Shown one piece after another: positions 3,931 to 44,496 of a stretch of DNA of 44,933 bases. The stretch comes from Candidatus Taylorbacteria bacterium RIFCSPLOWO2_02_FULL_44_35. Its GTDB lineage: Bacteria; Patescibacteriota; Minisyncoccia; Phycocordibacterales; DSPV01. Both the position numbers and the translations under genes were made by a program. Position 1 is the first letter of the stretch; the number at the start of each line of letters is the position of its first letter. The DNA lies in contig MHSF01000021.1 in NCBI GenBank assembly GCA_001822695.1, positions 993-45,925 of the forward strand, read 5' to 3'. Below the pieces are notes generated by a model that did no database searches, was not told where the DNA came from, and saw only the letters and a list, made by a program, of their open reading frames with translations.

Positions 3931-4521
3931 ATGACCTTTTTTGAATTTTTGGAGCCAATGTTTTTGATAAAAGCCGCTGGTTTAATCGGCGTAATCATCA
4001 TTGTTTTTGCCGAATCGGGTTTGTTTTTCGGTTTTTTCTTTCCTGGTGATTCATTGCTTTTTACTGCCGGTTTTTTGGCGTCGCAGGGAATTTTGCCGAT
4101 TGGTTGGCTAACGCTGGGTTGTTTTTTCGCCGCAGTCGCCGGCGATTCGGTTGGTTATGCTTTTGGCAAGGCGGTCGGCGAAAAGTTTTTTACCCGTGAT
4201 GATTCTTTCTTTTTCAAAAAACGCTATGCCGAGAAGGCGCGGCTCTTTTACGAAAAACGCGGCGCGCCGGCGATTTTTTTGGCACGCTTTGTTCCGATTG
4301 TCAGAACTTTCGCGCCGATTGCCGCCGGTATCGGTTTGATGAAGTATCGGACTTTTATTGTTTTCAACGTGGCCGGCGGTCTGGTTTGGTCTTTCGGCTT
4401 TATTCTCACCGGCTATTTTCTGGGCCGGACGGTGCCGGGTATTGACCAGTATATTTTGCCGATTGTTTTGCTGATAATCATTATTTCAGTTCTACCCGGA
4501 CTCTTTCGCCTCCGCCGTTGA
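3931..4521 (+). CDS. dedA: DedA/SNARE-associated family membrane protein
   Basis: FAESGLFFGFFFPGDSLLFTAGFLA and FLARFVPIVRTFAPIAAG are DedA signatures. The start is uncertain (3856, 3916 or 3931). I favour 3931 because TGaTATGAT at 3912-3920 sits 10 nt upstream. Confidence 0.8.
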   Translation: MTFFEFLEPMFLIKAAGLIGVIIIVFAESGLFFGFFFPGDSLLFTAGFLASQGILPIGWLTLGCFFAAVAGDSVGYAFGKAVGEKFFTRDDSFFFKKRYAEKARLFYEKRGAPAIFLARFVPIVRTFAPIAAGIGLMKYRTFIVFNVAGGLVWSFGFILTGYFLGRTVPGIDQYILPIVLLIIIISVLPGLFRLRR

Positions 4522-4524
4522 AAG

Positions 4525-5598
4525 TTGTATAATAAACAGGTGATTGGGAACGGATTTTTAAAATATTTTCCGACGCCGCGTTTTTTGGCCCAGCCGGCCG
4601 TCGGTTTGGCGATTTCCGACCAAGCCGTTAGGTTTGTTTTACTCAAGCATTTTGACGATGGTGGTTTGAAGCCGATTATTTACGGGGAACGGCTACTGCC
4701 GGCCGGCGCTCTTTTGGGTGGTGATATCGCCAGAGCCAAAGAAATTATTGAAATCCTCAAAGAGTTGAAAAAGGGTTGGCCAACCCCTTATGTGGCGGTT
4801 TCCGTACCGGAAGAGAAAGCTTTTTTGTTTAAGACCGAAGTGCCAATGATGGCTGAAAAATATATCCGCGGCAATTTGGATTTGCATTTGGAAGAATTCG
4901 TGCCGATTGCCTCCCACGAGGCGGTATTTGATTTTGAATTAATCGGGCCGTCAAAAATTAAAACCGACTCGTTGGATATTGGAGTAGCGGTTTTGTCGCA
5001 GAAAATCGTTTCTCATTTTGTTGGTGTTTTGGAAGTCGCCGGTATCAAACCGCTCTCTTTGGAAGTTGAACCGCAAGCGGTGGCTCGTTCACTTATTCGT
5101 CAGGGCGACCAGAGGACGGTCTTAATCATCAATTTCGGCGGCGTTTCCACCGGTTTGGCAATTGTTGGTCACAATGTCGTCCAATACAGTTCCACTTTGA
5201 ATATCGGCGGCAACACCTTCTCTTCCGCCTTAAGAAAATCAATCACAACGACCGACAAGGAAGCCGACGGCAATATCGAAAAGTTTTCTTCCTTGCTCGG
5301 CACGCTTTCCGTGTTACGCGACGAGATCAATCGGCTGTTGGTTTATTGGAGAGAGCACCGAGTGTTGGCCGATGGTGGCACCGGAAACAAAATCGAATTG
5401 ATAATTCTTTGCGGTCGCGATTCAAGCATCAACGGTTTCAGGGAATATATTAGCGCTAGTGTTAATTTGCCAGTAACAGTGGGCAATGTTTGGGCTAACA
5501 CTTTTTCTTTTGACGATTATGTGCCGTCGATTCAATTTAGTGATTCTTTGGGTTATGCCGCCGCCATCGGTCTGGCTCTGCGCCGTCCCAGCGCTTAA
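4525..5598 (+). CDS. pilM: Type IV pilus assembly protein PilM (actin-like ATPase fold)
   Basis: 357 aa with PilM-like layout (GLAISDQAVRFVLLK..., LSLEVEPQAVARSL, INFGGVSTGLAIV), followed by pilN/pilO-like genes. The track start is TTG; GTG at 4539 is an alternative. Confidence 0.75.
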   Translation: MYNKQVIGNGFLKYFPTPRFLAQPAVGLAISDQAVRFVLLKHFDDGGLKPIIYGERLLPAGALLGGDIARAKEIIEILKELKKGWPTPYVAVSVPEEKAFLFKTEVPMMAEKYIRGNLDLHLEEFVPIASHEAVFDFELIGPSKIKTDSLDIGVAVLSQKIVSHFVGVLEVAGIKPLSLEVEPQAVARSLIRQGDQRTVLIINFGGVSTGLAIVGHNVVQYSSTLNIGGNTFSSALRKSITTTDKEADGNIEKFSSLLGTLSVLRDEINRLLVYWREHRVLADGGTGNKIELIILCGRDSSINGFREYISASVNLPVTVGNVWANTFSFDDYVPSIQFSDSLGYAAAIGLALRRPSA

Positions 5599-9593: not shown

Positions 9594-9869
9594 ATGTCTT
9601 CAACCTTATCAATTCGCATCAACCCTAAAACCAAAAGGGCGGCGCAAAAAACTCTGCGTTCGCTCGGTTTGGACTTGTCTGCTGGTGTCAAAATGTTTCT
9701 GGAACAAGTTGCCACTACCGACTCTATCCCCTTCTATACCGCCACTGGAACTGGCCATAAATTGCGCCGCGCCAGCATCTATCGAAAGGAAATTGCTGAA
9801 ACCCTTAAGGGGGGGAAAAGTTATGCAACGGCTCAAGAAATGCATGTTGATATTCTTAAGGATAAGTGA
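9594..9869 (+). CDS. RelB/DinJ-family antitoxin
   Basis: LSIRINPKTKRAAQKTLRSLGLDLSAGVKMFLEQV is the ribbon-helix-helix N-terminus of DinJ/RelB antitoxins. Its stop lies 3 nt before the toxin ATG. Confidence 0.8.
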   Translation: MSSTLSIRINPKTKRAAQKTLRSLGLDLSAGVKMFLEQVATTDSIPFYTATGTGHKLRRASIYRKEIAETLKGGKSYATAQEMHVDILKDK

Positions 9870-9872
9870 TAA

Positions 9873-10151
9873 ATGTATATCACCAGACCAACAAAACAGT
9901 ATCGGAGGTCATTAAAAAATCTCCTACGGTCAGGTTCTTTTGATGATAACGAATTGCAAAAAGTAATTGACACTTTGTCTTGCGGTAAAATGCTGGAACT
10001 AAAGTATAGAAATCATAAATTACAAGGTGAGTTTTCTGACTGCTTCGAATGCCACCTCAACAATAACTTATTGTTCATCTATCGAATTGATGAGAAACTC
10101 AAGATCTTAAGCATAATTGACATCGGCACTCATTCCGATTTGTTTGAATAA
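9873..10151 (+). CDS. yafQ: YafQ/RelE-family mRNA interferase toxin
   Basis: YRNHKLQGEFSDCFECHLNNNLLFIYRIDE...IGTHSDLFE matches the YafQ pattern (H-x-L-x-G....R/F-E-C-H-I....LL-I-Y...G-T/S-H-S-D-L-F). Confidence 0.8.
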   Translation: MYITRPTKQYRRSLKNLLRSGSFDDNELQKVIDTLSCGKMLELKYRNHKLQGEFSDCFECHLNNNLLFIYRIDEKLKILSIIDIGTHSDLFE

Positions 10152-10195: not shown

Positions 10196-11191
10196 TCATA
10201 CCGCGAAAAATTTTTCCATCAATCTTTGTTTTAATCTCCAACTTTCACAATGCGACAAAAGCCCCAGATAGGAAAACAAGTTTCTATTATTTATCATCCT
10301 AAACATTCTATTTTTAGTTCTTGTCCGCAAAACCACCCGATGGGGCAAAACCACATAGTCAAGAAAATCCGTTCCCCGGTGAATCTTCCGAACTATTGTC
10401 TTTCGGTCATGTAAATCCAACAAAAGAAATTCCCGACAAAACTTTTTGATTTCCTCCGCCCACTCCAATAAAATCTCGCGCGATTGATGTAAAATCACAA
10501 AATCATCGCAATAACGAATATAATATCTTGCTTTTAATTCATGTTTAATAAACTGGTCAAGCTCATTCAGATAAATGTTAGCGAATAGCTGACTGGTAAC
10601 ATTGCCTAACGGCAAACCTTTCCTATGCGAATACTCAAAAGAGCAAACGATTTTCTTAACAAGGAATAGCAACTTTCTGTCATTTATTTTCCTTGCAATC
10701 AACGAGAGTAAAATTTGATGATCAATTGAATCAAAAAACCTCTTGATGTCGCATTTCAAGACAAAGCTCGTGCTTCTGTGATTCATTGAAACTTTCCGAG
10801 CAAAAACAACGAACCTTTTTACCCCAGAGTGTGTTCCCTTTTGGAACCGCGACGAATATAAATCGTGAATAAAACTCGGGTCAAAGACTTGGTATAGCTT
10901 GTGATAAACCGCTTGAAACAAAACTCGGTCGCGAACACTCGCTTTATGAATAATTCTTGGTTTGGGATCGTCTACCTTAAAAACAACATAGGGGTCATTC
11001 CGCCAATTTCCCTCCACCAATTTGCGATGTAATTCAAAAATGTTATCCTCCAGGTTAAGCTCAAAAGCAACGACATCGGGTTTCCTTCTTTTCCCTCTCC
11101 GAAAATCTCGCCAGGCCGCAAATAAATTATCGAGCGAAATTACATCATAAAAATCACAACTATGACGCCCCCCCCCCAGCGATTTGCCCAT
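10196..11191 (-). CDS. Reverse transcriptase of the DGR type
   Basis: RT motifs VLKCDIKRFFDSIDH, LPLGNVTSQLFANIYLNELD (the DGR-typical [LI]GxxxSQ instead of the group II intron QGxxxSP) and YIRYCDDFVIL. The N-terminus NLFAAWRDFRRGKRRK is typical of DGR RTs. Confidence 0.85.
   Translation of the reverse strand: MGKSLGGGRHSCDFYDVISLDNLFAAWRDFRRGKRRKPDVVAFELNLEDNIFELHRKLVEGNWRNDPYVVFKVDDPKPRIIHKASVRDRVLFQAVYHKLYQVFDPSFIHDLYSSRFQKGTHSGVKRFVVFARKVSMNHRSTSFVLKCDIKRFFDSIDHQILLSLIARKINDRKLLFLVKKIVCSFEYSHRKGLPLGNVTSQLFANIYLNELDQFIKHELKARYYIRYCDDFVILHQSREILLEWAEEIKKFCREFLLLDLHDRKTIVRKIHRGTDFLDYVVLPHRVVLRTRTKNRMFRMINNRNLFSYLGLLSHCESWRLKQRLMEKFFAV
11168..11177 (-). repeat. G10 homopolymer (C10 on the plus strand) inside codons 5-8 of the RT
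   Basis: The minus strand reads atg ggc aaa tcg ctG GGG GGG GGG cgt. It is also only 7-19 nt upstream of the possible TTG starts of the divergent avd-like ORF. Confidence 0.95.
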
Positions 11192-11528
11192 TATTTTGAA
11201 AATCAGGCTTTTGCATAAAAATATCTATACTGTTGGCGAAAAATTAAACAAGCGAGACAAACTTGGTATTCATAAAGAAATTGATAACTTATGTATCCAA
11301 TGCCTAGCTTTAGCAATTGAAGCCAAGTTTTGCCCACCTCAAACAAAAAATATCCCCCTGGAAACATTGAGAATCAAAATCTCTGTCCTGAAAAATCTGA
11401 TCCGCACAGAGAGCGAGCTTAACATTATCAATGAAAAAATTTATCTTCGGCTAGCAGAACAAGCGGTGGAAATTTCAAAAATGACAAGCGGATGGCTTAG
11501 TTCCCTAACGCAAAAAGGACTTTGGTAG
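11184..11528 (+). CDS. avd: Avd-like four-helix-bundle protein (23S rRNA intervening-sequence protein family)
   Basis: 114 aa. IYTVGEKLNKRDKLGIHKEIDNLCIQ...LRIKISVLKNLIRTESELNIINEKIYLRLAEQAVEISKMTSGWLSSL has the family pattern, including the C-terminal E-I-x-K-M-x-x-G-W. It is divergent from the RT and overlaps it by 8 nt. TTG start. Confidence 0.7.
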   Translation: MPIILKIRLLHKNIYTVGEKLNKRDKLGIHKEIDNLCIQCLALAIEAKFCPPQTKNIPLETLRIKISVLKNLIRTESELNIINEKIYLRLAEQAVEISKMTSGWLSSLTQKGLW

Positions 11529-12277
11529 TCCTTTCGGCGAGAAATTTCTAGGCGGAAACGCAAGTAGTCACAGTCATAGTGCGGATACCAGTAGCTGACA
11601 GAGACCTTGCGAGAGGGCGAGTCGAAATTAACACTCGGAACATTGCCACTCGCGGTACGCGAACCGGCACAGAGTGTGATCACTTTCCGGTCAAGGTGTT
11701 TGCCTGTCTTCAAGAGATAGGTATCACCGTCGATGAGCCGCTCGGGCAATGTTGTCGTGGCGATGCTTCGGTCCCAGATCTGCTGGGAAGAGAGATTTTC
11801 TCCGTTGACATTGCCAAACTCGGCTTCCTGCGTATCCCGGACCCTGATGGCATAGGTGCCGCTCCGGGCGTGGCGAGTAACCACCGAGTCGAGATTGTCG
11901 TTGAACTGCCGCCAATAGAAACCTTTGTCGACACAGCGCTTCTTGTAGACCGAAGCGATGGGATTGCATTTGTTGGCAATCGCCTCATGCATAACAATGA
12001 GACGGGTCGGGTAATCCGCAGGTGCGGGCACTTGGAGTTCGCTGAAATCGGCAGCGATGTTGTAGTTGTCGAGGTAGTATTCCTGCCACCACTGGGCTTC
12101 CTTGGGAGAGATTTTCATCCGTTTTGGGAAACCGCTATTCCTGATGACACCAAGTACCGTCTGGCATAGTGACTCATTTTGGGCGAGCGTTGTGAAGTCA
12201 ATGATCTCCCACCCTGTTTTCGCACAAGTAATTGCCAGCTCATGGGCTTCACTACAACCGAATTCTGATGCTTTCAT
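11441..12277 (-). CDS. Putative DGR target protein (278 aa) with a VR-like C-terminal segment
   Basis: C-terminus CAGSRTASGNVPSVNFDSPSRKVSVSYWYPHYDCDYLRFRLE is built mostly of NNY codons and ends in hydrophobic-R-F-R, like C-type-lectin-fold variable regions. It is G+C-rich (line 11821-11880 has 40/60 G+C, versus 20/60 in RT line 10201-10260). The last 29 codons run antisense through the avd 3' end. Confidence 0.6.
   Translation of the reverse strand: MKASEFGCSEAHELAITCAKTGWEIIDFTTLAQNESLCQTVLGVIRNSGFPKRMKISPKEAQWWQEYYLDNYNIAADFSELQVPAPADYPTRLIVMHEAIANKCNPIASVYKKRCVDKGFYWRQFNDNLDSVVTRHARSGTYAIRVRDTQEAEFGNVNGENLSSQQIWDRSIATTTLPERLIDGDTYLLKTGKHLDRKVITLCAGSRTASGNVPSVNFDSPSRKVSVSYWYPHYDCDYLRFRLEISRRKDYQSPFCVRELSHPLVIFEISTACSASRR
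11514..11534. terminator. 8-bp stem / 5-nt loop hairpin at the avd stop, downstream of the VR-like segment
   Basis: aaaggact-ttggt-agtccttt. It could be a bidirectional terminator, or the hairpin found 3' of DGR variable repeats. Confidence 0.5.
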
Positions 12278-12439
12278 GTTTTTCCTTTTTCTTTTTGGAC
12301 TTATTCTCTTTTATCATCCGCTCCACCTTAGGTGGGCGGTAAAAGAAAACTTATCCGCTTGTTTTCAAAGGACCGCTAATAGGATAGCATATATGAATAA
12401 TTAAGTCAAGTAGAAAATGGCTATAATAACCGCTATCAT

Positions 12440-13756
12440 TTGGATGTGAATAAACTCTTATTTCTAGCCAAAAAATTGATACCCGAAAGAATTTTTGTAT
12501 TTTTTCAGCCGGCCTATCACTGGCTGCTGGCAATGCTGGCGGCAATCATTTATCGCTTCCCTTCCCGAAAAATTAAAGTAATTGCCGTTACCGGCACCAA
12601 AGGTAAAAGTTCGGTTTGTGAATTAGTGAACGCAATTTTGGAAGAAGCCGGTTATCAAACGGCGCTGGCTTCCACTATCCGCTTCAAAATCGGCGAGCGG
12701 ACAGCGCGCAATTTTTTCAAAATGACTATGCCCGGCCGATTTTTTGTCCAGAAATTTTTGCGACAGGCGGTAAAAGAAAATTGCGATTGGGTGATTTTGG
12801 AAATAACCAGCGAGGGCGCCCGGCAATTCCGGCACAAATTTATTGACTTGGATTCGCTGATTTTCACCAATCTGGCGCCGGAACATATTGAATCGCACGG
12901 CTCTTACGAAAAATATCGCGACGCTAAACTTTCCATTGCCCGGTCTTTGGAAAAATCACCAAAATTAAACAAAACAATAATTGCCAACATAGACGACAAA
13001 GAGGGCGCGAAATTTTTAGTGGTTAATGTGCAAAATAAAGTTCCCTATCAATTGGAAGACGCCAAACTTTACGGCCTAAAATCAGATGGTTTGGAAATGA
13101 TGTTTGATGGCGAGAAAATAACCTCGCGCCTGCGCGGAATTTTCAATATCAATAACATTCTCGCCGCCGCCAATTTCGGTAAAGTATTGGGAATTTCTAC
13201 TTTAGCGATTAAAAGAGCGATTGAAAAAGTTGAAGAAATAAAAGGCCGGGCACAGATTATAAAAACCGACAAATTTGAGGTGGTGGTTGATTACGCCCAC
13301 ACACCCGATTCGCTTCGCGCAATTTATCAAGCATTTCCCAATAAAAAAAAGATTTGCGTTTTGGGCAATACCGGCGGCGGCCGCGACAAATGGAAACGGC
13401 CAGCTATGGGCAAAATTGCCGACGAATTTTGCGATGAAATAATTTTAACCAATGAAGACCCTTACGACGAAGACCCTCGCGCGATTCTCGCTGATATGGA
13501 AAAAGGTTTTAGCCGGCATAAGCCGGAAATTATTATGGACAGAAGGGAGGCCATTAGAGAAGCCCTTCGATTCGCGAACGGCACCCTAAATCCGCCCGTT
13601 GGTGGATCGGGTGCCCGTAATCAAAACGACGCAGTCGTTTTGATTACGGGCAAGGGCACCGACCCGTTTATTATGAGTCCGCGCGGCAGTAAAATTCCCT
13701 GGGACGACGAAGAAGTGGCAAGAGAAGAATTGGAAAAATATGCCAGAATTGCCTGA
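12440..13756 (+). CDS. murE: Mur ligase, MurE-like (UDP-N-acetylmuramoyl-tripeptide synthetase)
   Basis: IAVTGTKGKSSVCELV (P-loop), DYAHTPDSL and LTNEDPYDEDPRAIL are Mur ligase/MurE motifs. TTG start in the track. Confidence 0.75.
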   Translation: MDVNKLLFLAKKLIPERIFVFFQPAYHWLLAMLAAIIYRFPSRKIKVIAVTGTKGKSSVCELVNAILEEAGYQTALASTIRFKIGERTARNFFKMTMPGRFFVQKFLRQAVKENCDWVILEITSEGARQFRHKFIDLDSLIFTNLAPEHIESHGSYEKYRDAKLSIARSLEKSPKLNKTIIANIDDKEGAKFLVVNVQNKVPYQLEDAKLYGLKSDGLEMMFDGEKITSRLRGIFNINNILAAANFGKVLGISTLAIKRAIEKVEEIKGRAQIIKTDKFEVVVDYAHTPDSLRAIYQAFPNKKKICVLGNTGGGRDKWKRPAMGKIADEFCDEIILTNEDPYDEDPRAILADMEKGFSRHKPEIIMDRREAIREALRFANGTLNPPVGGSGARNQNDAVVLITGKGTDPFIMSPRGSKIPWDDEEVAREELEKYARIA

Positions 13757-25795: not shown

Positions 25796-25805
25796 GGCTT
25801 CGCGT

Positions 25806-25906
25806 AAGTTCCAAATCTCAAATTCCAAGTTCCAAACAAATTTCAAATTTTTAATATTTAATTTTTAACCATTGTTTGTGATTTGGATTTTGGAGCTTGG
25901 AATTTA
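25806..25906. repeat. 'TTCCAA-word' palindromic element (family B), copy B1
   Basis: Left arm aagttccaaatctcaaattccaagttccaaacaa, AT-only loop, right arm ttgtttgtgatttggattttggagcttggaattt. Confidence 0.75.
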
Positions 25907-33411: not shown

Positions 33412-33604
33412 TAAGATTATTATACTAATGTTTCTATTATACAGAACTTGTGAACAACTCTTAAATATGTTAGTAATATGTGGACAAATTGTTTACAACA
33501 ATTTGTAAGTTCCAAATCACAAATTCCAAATTCCAAACAATAATTAAAAATTAAATATTGAAATTTGTTTGGAGCTTGATAATTGGAACTTGGAAATTAC
33601 AACC
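33412..33604. other. dnaA/rpmH divergent spacer, candidate oriC part
   Basis: DnaA-box-like 9-mers TGTGGACAA (33479-33487, one mismatch) and TGTGAACAA (33449-33457, two mismatches). It also carries family B repeat copy B2 at 33507-33598. Confidence 0.35.
33507..33598. repeat. Family B palindromic element, copy B2 (loop in opposite orientation)
   Basis: aagttccaaatcacaaattccaaattccaaacaa - taattaaaaattaaatattgaaat - ttgtttggagcttgataattggaacttggaaatt. The loop resembles the reverse complement of the B3/B5 loop. Confidence 0.75.
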
Positions 33605-42741: not shown

Positions 42742-42750
42742 TTATTTAAA

Positions 42751-42848
42751 AAGTTCCAAGTTCCAAATCACAAGCTCCAAACAAATTTCAATATTTAATA
42801 TTAAATTTTAATTATTGTTTGGAATTTGGATTTTGTAATTTGGAATTT
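42751..42848. repeat. Family B palindromic element, copy B3
   Basis: aagttccaagttccaaatcacaagctccaaacaa - atttcaatatttaatattaaattttaatta - ttgtttggaatttggattttgtaatttggaattt. 42771-42830 is identical to 43991-44050 (60 nt). Confidence 0.85.
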
Positions 42849-42867
42849 ATGCCTTTATTTTACCATT

Positions 42868-43242: not shown

Positions 43243-43266
43243 TTAACTTTTTAATTTTATTTAGAT

Positions 43267-43300
43267 TTGTTTGGAATTTGGAGCTTGGAATTTGAAATTT
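43267..43300. repeat. Family B half element (right arm only), copy B4
   Basis: ttgtttggaatttggagcttggaatttgaaattt. Confidence 0.7.
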
Positions 43301-43306
43301 ATCCAG

Positions 43307-43984: not shown

Positions 43985-44068
43985 TAAGTTCCAAGCTCCA
44001 AACAAATTTCAATATTTAATATTAAATTTTAATTATTGTTTGGAATTTGGAACTTGATATTTGGAACT
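43985..44068. repeat. Family B palindromic element, copy B5
   Basis: aagttccaagctccaaacaa - atttcaatatttaatattaaattttaatta - ttgtttggaatttggaacttgatatttggaactt. Confidence 0.85.
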
Positions 44069-44496
44069 TACTTCCTCATTGTTTCCTGTGTCCCCGGGTT
44101 TGTTTGGTCGTAAATGTCCAAACTCCAAGTGAGGTCTTTGAGCCGGCTTTCCGACAGGCGCGGCACGGTGATGGGCGTTCCTTCCGTTGCTTTGATGTCT
44201 TTGCCGGTTGGCGTTTTGGGCACTTTGCGCCAGATGTAGAGCCGGCTACCGCGGAAAAAGTGGAAAGCCGATTCCAAAACGGCGATGAAGTTCCGGCCGT
44301 TCAATTTGAAAAAAGCCAAAGCTAAAGCGAAACCGGCAGCGGCTAATATCAAAGGAATGGCGATGAGCAAGGGCAAGAAACGATAAAGGGCGAAACAGAA
44401 ACCGGCGCCGCCGGCAAGGTAAATAAACTGCTTCAGGGTTAGTGGCCCAAAGATTCTGTCTTCTACTTCAATAAATTGCGGGATCTGGAAACGCAT
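44068..44496 (-). CDS. PrgI-family (VirB3-analogous) T4SS membrane protein
   Basis: MRFQIPQFIEVEDRIFGPLTLKQFIYLAGGAGFCF..., followed by two TM helices, is the PrgI-family N-terminal pattern. Confidence 0.65.
   Translation of the reverse strand: MRFQIPQFIEVEDRIFGPLTLKQFIYLAGGAGFCFALYRFLPLLIAIPLILAAAGFALALAFFKLNGRNFIAVLESAFHFFRGSRLYIWRKVPKTPTGKDIKATEGTPITVPRLSESRLKDLTWSLDIYDQTNPGTQETMRK

Follow-up and report, generated by a model that had tools for sequence, protein, structure and literature searches.

Positions 10196 to 12277 of a 44,933-nucleotide stretch of contig MHSF01000021.1 from Candidatus Taylorbacteria bacterium RIFCSPLOWO2_02_FULL_44_35 (here called the window; positions count from its first letter) hold three genes that an earlier reading of the sequence, the original prediction, had assigned to a diversity-generating retroelement (DGR). 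These encode a reverse transcriptase (RT), the accessory variability determinant (Avd) and a target protein whose gene ends in a segment resembling a variable repeat (VR). The open reading frame (ORF) positions, the protein motifs, the 8-nt overlap of RT and avd and the 44 bp between the RT stop codon and a YafQ-type toxin gene were all verified. Based on comparison with related loci, we report here that the template repeat (TR), for which no candidate had been recognized, has fused with the VR into a single repeat, that the parts once lying between the two are absent, that the repeat is identical in all contigs of this lineage, and that two further lineages carry fused repeats.

The translated RT contains the motifs LPLGNVTSQLFANIYLNELD and YCDDF, of which LGNVTSQLFANIY and YCDD correspond to the signature of the DGR clade (I/LGxxxSQ, YxDD), and it matches Pfam RVT_1 (1.5e-20). 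In a sequence search of the PDB, the best match was 8ub7_A (E=1.8e-37), scoring 16 orders of magnitude above group II intron RTs, the best of which reached 4e-21. The aligned part of this 328-aa chain reads IGSLTSQLFANVY...YMDD, and from the aligned sequence we take the chain to be the Bordetella phage enzyme bRT, the PDB code being unconfirmed in the preprint text. Top matches in a tblastn search of phages included Vibrio phage VP585 and the archaeal virus ANMV-1. Orthologues of the RT adjoin verified TR/VR pairs in related loci. Motifs, PDB similarity and orthologue context together indicate that the RT belongs to the DGR clade. Relative to the related locus L013 (loci and target homologues bear L and P numbers, respectively), its ratio of nonsynonymous to synonymous differences (pN/pS) is 0.21.

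The avd product aligns over its full length with the models PF22296 for bAvd (7e-8, 33 bits, cut-off 40) and NF033474 DivGenRetAVD (6e-10, 39 bits, cut-off 80), both scores lying under the curated cut-offs. Precomputed PF22296 matches exist for avd orthologues of related loci, and a PDB sequence search with the Avd-like protein gave no match. At the nucleotide level, avd is 98% identical to the avd genes of L007 and L013 (pN/pS 0.11-0.14). Taken together, the model matches and orthologues indicate that the accessory protein is present at this locus.

As predicted, the target ORF is much richer in G+C than RT and avd (0.51-0.56 vs 0.35-0.41; window mean 0.436), with values by codon position of.52/.42/.63 compared to.45/.30/.41 for the RT and.42/.30/.37 for avd. 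A foreign origin of the target gene came into consideration; this composition is, however, common to all members of the target family, and the nearby RuvA gene has a similar third-position G+C. The run of codons ending in a pyrimidine (NNY) that had been noted at 11552-11671 was also confirmed: 32 of the 40 codons from 203 to 242 are NNY, compared to 119/202 in the remaining gene (Fisher p = 0.012), a genuine yet modest enrichment. The last four of these codons (11552-11563) encode L-R-F-R. We identified 45 homologues of the target protein, all from the candidate phyla radiation (CPR) or groundwater where the source is named (Taylorbacteria, Uhrbacteria, Paceibacterota). Even between homologues that are 85-88% identical overall, hypervariability is seen at residues 207-238, and an invariant LRFR comes next; sequence comparison indicates that the target possesses a hypervariable region at the codons containing TR adenines. 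No Pfam or NCBIfam family and no PDB profile matched the protein. Its AlphaFold2 model has a mean predicted local distance difference test (pLDDT) score of 65, above 80 in the core (residues 50-160) and 50-80 in the VR, and a Foldseek search of this model against PDB and BFVD returned nothing at E<0.001. The C-type-lectin-fold scaffold proposed earlier could thus not be demonstrated; the GS...LRFR ending resembles C-type lectin VRs by eye only.

Four independent searches agreed with the original prediction that neither the repeat nor its flanks occur a second time in the window. When 11400-12300 was compared ungapped, with tolerance for adenine changes, to both strands of the 44.9 kb, a test of the kind that the prediction had proposed, the self match alone was returned. 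Repeat finding and self-BLAST with mismatch-bias scoring detected no TR partner in the whole window and gave only AT-rich palindromic intergenic repeats and an inverted repeat at 852/2854. The core TTGCGTTTCCGCCTAG, searched with up to three mismatches, occurs once in the window. No TR, no TR leader and no core resembling an initiation of mutagenic homing (IMH) site was found elsewhere in the window or in the flanks of L001-L006, and an Rfam search of the window yielded only tRNAs. The window holds a single repeat copy, not a TR/VR pair.

The fate of the TR is apparent from related loci that have retained it. Intact loci show the order target (+), a spacer of ~250 nt, TR (+), avd (-) and RT (+); this layout is found in L007, L008/L021, L011/L015, L012/L013/L016, L018, L026 (Candidatus Taylorbacteria) and L027. 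The fraction of TR/VR mismatches located at TR adenines amounts to 22/22 in L012, 13/13 in L008, 22/25 in L007, 28/30 in L011, 9/9 in L018, 23/24 in L026 and 14/15 in L027 (88-100% overall), and because the mismatches fall at TR adenines, these relatives are true DGRs. In all of them the TR lies at most about 250 nt from the target. Architecture B3, TR-(avd)-RT, makes up 90% of the CPR DGR set of Wu et al. (2018, NAR, PMC5758913). The window locus fits B3: avd, on the strand opposite to RT, lies between the TR position and RT, and the target is located upstream on the same strand as RT. The alternating-strand layout, initially regarded as unusual, is the norm for B3 (PMC5758913) and is present in every intact relative we found. 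In the window, the TR position of this layout is now held by a hybrid repeat.

BLAST alignment to L007 delimits this hybrid. Window positions 12660 to 11544 correspond to the target and VR of L007 (1-1117), and 11660 to 10165 correspond collinearly to its TR, avd and RT (1366-2862); the two blocks overlap on window 11544-11660 exactly. The VR-to-TR spacing is 365 nt in both L007 and L012, and one repeat unit plus spacer is gone from the window. Upstream of 11660 the sequence continues the target body; from 11547 on it is that of the TR flank (GAAATTTCTCGCC, stem-loop, antisense avd) instead of the VR flank (GCAATGTTAACTTGA...). VR-specific bases extend as far as 11566, and those specific to the TR flank begin at 11547. 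The hybrid consists of a 5' third identical to the TR of sister lineages and a diversified 3' part (Table 1): adenines are changed at 0/8 positions in the former vs 14/23 in the latter (Fisher p = 0.0035). Overall, 17/31 TR adenines are retained in the hybrid vs 9/31 in the VR of L012; the L012 figure follows from its 22 mismatches at TR adenines.

Table 1. Features of the fused DGR locus (window positions)
Feature	Positions	Strand	Description
DGR-type RT	10196-11191	-	331 aa, intact ORF; LGNVTSQ...YLNELD, YCDDF
G10 homopolymer (C10 on +)	11168-11177	-	RT codons 5-8 (L-G-G-G); 6 nt upstream of avd start; in frame here
avd	11184-11528	+	114 aa, intact; divergent from RT, 8-nt overlap with RT start
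Target gene	11441-12277	-	278 aa: conserved body, fused repeat and 36-aa tail; intact relatives 245-247 aa
Single hybrid VR/TR repeat	11544-11660	-	117 nt; overlap of the two BLAST alignments to L007
5' third of hybrid repeat	11618-11660	-	identical to TR of L007/L012; 8/8 adenines unchanged
Diversified part	11564-11617	-	14 substitutions, all at sister-TR adenines, plus 1 non-adenine (GAC vs TR GCC, base 11574)
IMH/IMH*-like core	11548-11565	-	ACTTGCGTTTCCGCCTAG; 18 nt shared without mismatch by VR and TR; a simple deletion would have crossed over here
Invariant linker	11539-11548	-	GAAATTTCTC; follows TR, not VR, in all relatives
TR-side 3' stem-loop	11509-11539	-	outer CGC/GCG stem plus AAAGGACU/AGUCCUUU; -15.3 kcal/mol; avd stop codon in loop
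36 extra codons and stop	11441-11551	-	LEISRRKDYQSPFCVRELSHPLVIFEISTACSASRR, then stop; from TR 3' flank and antisense avd 3' end; replaces native LAMLT or LAIC, then stop

The sequence beyond the repeat is likewise of TR type. An 8-bp hairpin had been noted after L-R-F-R; the hairpin is real but larger, because an outer stem has to be added, and comparison with intact relatives identifies it as the TR-side stem-loop rather than a VR-side IMH hairpin. It covaries across nine loci (GGACU/AGUCC, GGAGC/GCUCC, GGAGU/ACUCC and GGGGCU/AGCCCC, with an outer CGC/GCG vs CAC/GUG). After the VR, intact relatives carry CTAGCAAT..CTTGTTCCCT and then a GC hairpin with a T-run; the window has the TR-type flank CTAGAAATTTCTCGC and the TR hairpin instead. 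The IMH-type flank and GC inverted repeat of the recipient side are absent. The window keeps the linker and stem-loop (11509-11548) and lacks the TR promoter, the leader and all VR-side signals. The position of the avd 3' end antisense to the target 3' end, previously seen as an oddity, is a mere consequence of the deletion. Among the options that the original prediction had offered for the missing TR, its loss with RT and Avd remaining intact is borne out, with the TR merged into the VR by a 365-nt deletion between direct repeats. A remote TR acting in trans, or a module working differently from described DGRs, found no support; the template has been absorbed into the target gene.

Part of the region deleted from the window is structured in the relatives. 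In an alignment of seven intact loci, the VR is followed by the conserved CTTGTTCCCT and the GC hairpin with its T-run, then an invariant TATAAT (TTGCGA-17-TATAAT in L007), a leader of ~190 nt, the TR, the linker GAAATTTCTC and a stem-loop of 12-13 bp. RNAalifold predicted 87 pairs for six TR RNAs, 28 of them with compensatory changes, compared to 13 +/- 2.4 in shuffled alignments (0/500 reach 28) and at most 8 with slid partners. Covariation is concentrated in leader helices 1, 2, 5 and 7, which account for most of it. The leader also contains an invariant AGAAAUU, predicted to pair with an invariant AAUUUCU 3' of the TR (helix 4, 7 pairs) and thereby to close the TR into a loop; helix 4 never varies, so this pairing is without covariation support, and its leader partner is deleted in the window. 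These features suggest that in this CPR DGR family the template is a discrete RNA of ~310 nt with its own TATAAT promoter, leader and 3' stem-loop. Its coordinates are 1128-1526 in L007 and 6931-7337 in L008, with equivalents in L026, L018, L027, L011 and L012, and it is absent from the window. No Rfam model matched the intact TR RNA of L007. A hidden Markov model (HMM) of the spacer and leader detected L013 (2.8e-65) and gave no match in the window, L001, L002 or L005. An HMM of the full TR RNA matched the window only at 11659-11482, corresponding to model positions 272-449 of 449, that is, the TR and its 3' flank.

The fusion has altered the end of the target protein. Most homologues end 4-5 residues past LRFR, at 245-247 aa, and the window protein continues for 36 residues more. 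The hybrid runs into the TR flank, and the lineage is therefore left with a target protein having one fixed "variable" sequence and a 36-aa tail. The start of the same tail is found in P0014 (LEISRnqrsYkaPFCV), and tails of this type occur in the independent fusions P0014/L009 and L020.

Across the six contigs L001-L006 from six samples, we observed 0 differences in 11441-11700. These contigs do differ from the window in the RT N-terminus, in a Mur ligase gene and by 0.3-0.7% genome-wide. Changes in RT within the fused lineage, counted from contig differences, comprise four at third positions and one replacement. At least 24 contigs encode the exact target protein. Its 90% cluster has just one further member, P0046 (three contigs), which carries E259K in the tail. 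No other VR variants with the LEISRR tail of the fused lineage were found among the 45 homologues. Intact sister clusters show several alleles of the VR and few differences in the body: P0054 has 14 differences in the VR vs 3 in the body, P0052 has only the 3' half of the VR replaced (vs P0005), and P0059 and P0064 show 1 and 12 VR differences. The contrast with these clusters supports a frozen repeat in the window lineage, in which we observed no ongoing VR diversification at the contig level.

Fusion has occurred more than once in this target family. In L009, whose target is 48% identical, the single repeat is diversified throughout; CTGGAAATTTCTCGC, a stem-loop and avd come after it, and there is no TR. 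L020/L025 (bin-3722) has a single AAY-rich repeat ending ...NLRFRLEISRNKGLS and a stop codon, with a TR-type stem-loop and no TR; in L020, avd is cut to 84 aa and the RT is reduced to its C-terminal 163 aa. Both L009 and L020/L025 fused independently of the window lineage. We also considered that the fused arrangement could be ancestral and the intact one derived, and rejected this: the fused lineage nests among lineages that are 92-96% identical and have a single TR sequence in common, which makes the fused state the derived one, and the hybrid's A-to-N changes relative to the sister-lineage TR also count against fused ancestry. Decay takes several forms among the relatives. L020 combines a fused repeat with truncated avd and RT (4175-4996), L011 has an intact TR and a gap of ~98 nt in the RT (L011 2656-2664), and in L022 (4162-4321) the target is an orphan: of the TR-RNA leader only the first half is left, and no ORF of avd or RT size lies downstream.

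We interpret the locus as a recently inactivated chromosomal DGR of the CPR-typical B3 layout that lost its separate template by VR-TR fusion, and assign this reading a probability of about 0.85. A 365-nt deletion between the direct repeats took out one repeat unit and the spacer, comprising the VR-side flank with its GC hairpin/terminator, the TATAAT promoter of the TR and the structured leader of ~190 nt. The remaining hybrid is joined at its 5' end to the target body, carries VR-type changes at adenine sites in its 3' two-thirds and runs at its 3' end into the TR flank. Mutagenic retrohoming would then have stopped, with neither promoter and leader for a template RNA nor a VR-side flank for the recipient. 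RT and avd may still be intact only because the fusion is recent, with L020/L025 representing a later stage. Less certainly, the deletion could have arisen by slippage or recombination in the 18-nt core (11548-11565), or by a cDNA-guided event at the same site. A plain crossover must sit in this core because the 5' side is diversified and the 3' side is TR flank.

Several observations weigh against this interpretation. RT and avd are intact, with the poly-G tract in frame, and their pN/pS is low (0.21, 0.14), although these values mostly reflect pre-fusion history. Only 45-52 kb of the genome is visible, leaving room for another TR/VR pair for the RT. Contig consensus hides minority variants, and the intact L012/13/16 also show one VR in three contigs, so identity alone is no proof of inactivity. 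We infer the need for the leader and the VR-side flank from their conservation and from the Bordetella phage system. Moreover, a single crossover predicts a VR-type 5' part and a TR-type 3' part, and the hybrid shows the reverse; such a crossover also needs the short 18-nt core although a 43-nt identical stretch lay upstream.

The polarity of the hybrid is that of partial 3'-to-5' homing, and partial 3' replacement is known in the family (P0052). Three origins may account for it. The VR may already have had a TR-like 5' third when slippage occurred at the core, which we rate most likely of the three; a cDNA extending into the TR flank may have bridged VR and TR flank; or a 5' crossover may have been followed by one homing round into the hybrid. 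The first is favored because adenines are not unusually depleted in the hybrid and the L020 hybrid stayed AAY-rich. With low probability, collapse of VR and TR at the IMH core could be a by-product of RT-mediated retrohoming rather than of ordinary recombination.

It is conceivable that the hybrid served, at least for a time after the fusion, as both template and recipient, with the target mRNA, whose end is now formed by the TR-side linker and stem-loop, reverse-transcribed under adenine mutagenesis and the cDNA homed back. RT and avd are intact and in frame, the TR-side linker and the covarying hairpin were kept directly after the repeat, and the confinement of changed adenines to the 3' part would arise naturally if the crossover lay in the 43 nt of 5' identity and homing into the hybrid followed, 3'-side partial replacement being known from P0052. 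We nevertheless consider this course of events quite improbable, since the deletion took away the TR promoter and the leader, including its four covarying helices and the invariant sequence that would pair with the linker, and the VR-side flank and GC hairpin are gone. In addition, at least 24 contigs share a single repeat allele and three more differ in the tail only, adenine depletion is no stronger than in normal VRs (17/31 kept vs 9/31 in L012), and the L020 hybrid stayed AAY-rich while its RT decayed. That the fused repeat is even now, or was for some time after the fusion, a self-templating DGR copied by RT/Avd from the target mRNA is, on balance, unlikely. If true, it would explain why diversification is limited to the 3' two-thirds of a TR-flanked hybrid.

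DGRs with remote targets are known, and a TR elsewhere in the genome might act in trans on the window repeat or on another target, with RT and Avd still in use. The intact RT and avd and the partial view of the genome would fit such an arrangement, which is very unlikely given that the TR position of the cassette is held by a hybrid with the TR's own 3' flank. The searches of the window and of the L001-L006 flanks recovered neither TR nor leader nor IMH-like core, the repeat is invariant between contigs and has no VR-side flank, and in every intact relative the TR lies close to the target. VR/TR repeats can break or confuse metagenome assemblies, many relatives are short contigs ending at the repeat, and two alleles are combined in the mosaic contig L010, so the hybrid might be a collapse of VR and TR into one copy in a genome that has the intact cassette. 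This we hold to be extremely improbable: at least 24 contigs, drawn from several samples and named under different schemes (k141_..., Ga0209343_..., ANAN16-1 scaffolds, Logan), share this junction, a collapse would need passage through only 18 identical bases, no contig shows the window VR with a VR-type flank, and two unrelated lineages share the architecture, one of them with matching downstream decay.

The kind of element found here is known and common; DGRs of CPR and DPANN organisms were reportedly treated by Paul et al. in 2017. Like other CPR B3 DGRs, the window locus has target, TR position, inverted avd and RT in the same order and orientations, it belongs to the same host group (Candidatus Taylorbacteria, Paceibacterota and Uhrbacteria relatives) with the same RT family and Avd, and its target ends in a VR to which no fold can be assigned, as in "UVR"/ungrouped CPR targets. 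It differs from them in having no separate TR and a single hybrid repeat at the target 3' end, in the deletion of spacer, TR promoter and leader, in the 36-aa tail and in showing no detectable diversification. The prototype DGR of Bordetella phage BPP-1 (mtd-avd-TR-brt), whose bRT is presumably the closest relative of solved structure, has the IGxxTSQLFAN RT motif and an Avd-like partner in common with the window. Relatives of the window share with it adenine-specific TR-to-VR differences, a GC hairpin after the VR and a GC-rich 3' core common to both repeats that is followed by different flanks (IMH vs IMH*). By contrast, avd is inverted here, the catalytic motif is YCDD vs YMDD, the TR RNA has its own promoter, a family-specific leader and a 3' stem-loop with no Rfam match, and only the IMH*-type side survives in the window. 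An engineered BPP-1 TR in which IMH* was replaced by IMH is said to be self-homing (Doulatov and colleagues, 2004). There the repeat acts as donor and recipient, as self-templating would require; that construct has an IMH flank, whereas the natural hybrid has an IMH*-type flank, no leader and no sign of activity.

Partial loss of DGR machinery has a parallel in the "degenerate" DGR loci of Thiohalocapsa PB-PSB1, in which key machinery is missing or pseudogenized and other parts persist (PNAS 2024, PMC10907252). Decay was attributed there to duplication, transposons and repeats resembling miniature inverted-repeat transposable elements (PMC10907252), in contrast to the precise VR/TR deletion found here, which left a chimeric repeat and occurred three times in one target family. 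On recombination, fusion or decay of VR and TR, the literature we found offered only statements that homing is not RecA recombination, and these degenerate loci. In this limited literature search, we found no description of a recurrent VR-TR fusion route or of a conserved template-RNA structure.

The poly-G tract near the RT start differs in length between relatives with the same flanks (9 G in L011, 10 in the window, 11 in L007); it is interrupted in L003 and L012/13/16 and has 7-9 G elsewhere (8-9 in L008, L009 and L018). All three RT glycine codons of the tract are GGG though the gene is AT-rich, and a GGG-(R/H)-H motif is conserved across the RT family. By our reading of the sequence, an in-frame TAA blocks the RT N-terminus in L007, and some relatives have alternative start codons in other frames near the tract. 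The tract may be a slippage-prone switch of RT expression, or its length differences may be homopolymer assembly errors. At the other end of the RT gene, a RelB (2.7e-9)/YafQ-toxin (6.5e-24) pair occupies 9594-10151, between RuvA and the RT stop codon. Because the orthologous L007 is without this pair, with RuvA directly following RT, the pair is a recent insertion beside the DGR.

Further features were observed elsewhere in the window and in related contigs. An imperfect inverted repeat of ~330 nt with arms at 852-1179 and 2522-2854 (perfect 64-nt outer and 38-nt inner arms) adjoins tRNA-Ser (2847-2936) and encloses a 1.34-kb segment with one 423-aa ORF (1182-2453, - strand) that has no Pfam match. 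The 852-2854 segment lies in contig L002 in the orientation opposite to that in the window and L001, which suggests an invertible cassette or alternative assemblies. The AT-rich palindromic intergenic repeats are built on TTCCAAA/TTTGGAA units, are 80-100 nt long and 70-94% alike, and occur in both orientations (25800-25906, 33497-33603, 42748-42852, 43258-43301 and 43986-44071). In L010 (ERZ27254737 k141_381972, 1317 nt), ~800 nt of target gene are 100% identical to the window allele, and the sequence is then 100% identical to an L017-type allele; this second stretch runs through a VR that appears to be a copy of an L011-type TR. Either natural recombination or chimeric assembly of strains occurring together accounts for L010.

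In conclusion, the fusion route and the template-RNA structure are useful for the annotation and mechanistic study of DGRs. One class of "RT + Avd, no TR" loci, which DGR finders discard or flag, is explained by absorption of the template into the target gene. The template-RNA model for CPR B3 DGRs, with a promoter, a leader of ~190 nt, predicted leader/3'-flank pairing and a stem-loop, can be tested. Three independent fusions within one target family of about a dozen lineages suggest that the direct-repeat design of DGRs provides a built-in route to self-destruction, and that some frozen genes whose C-terminus is AAY-rich or VR-like may be fossils of this route.

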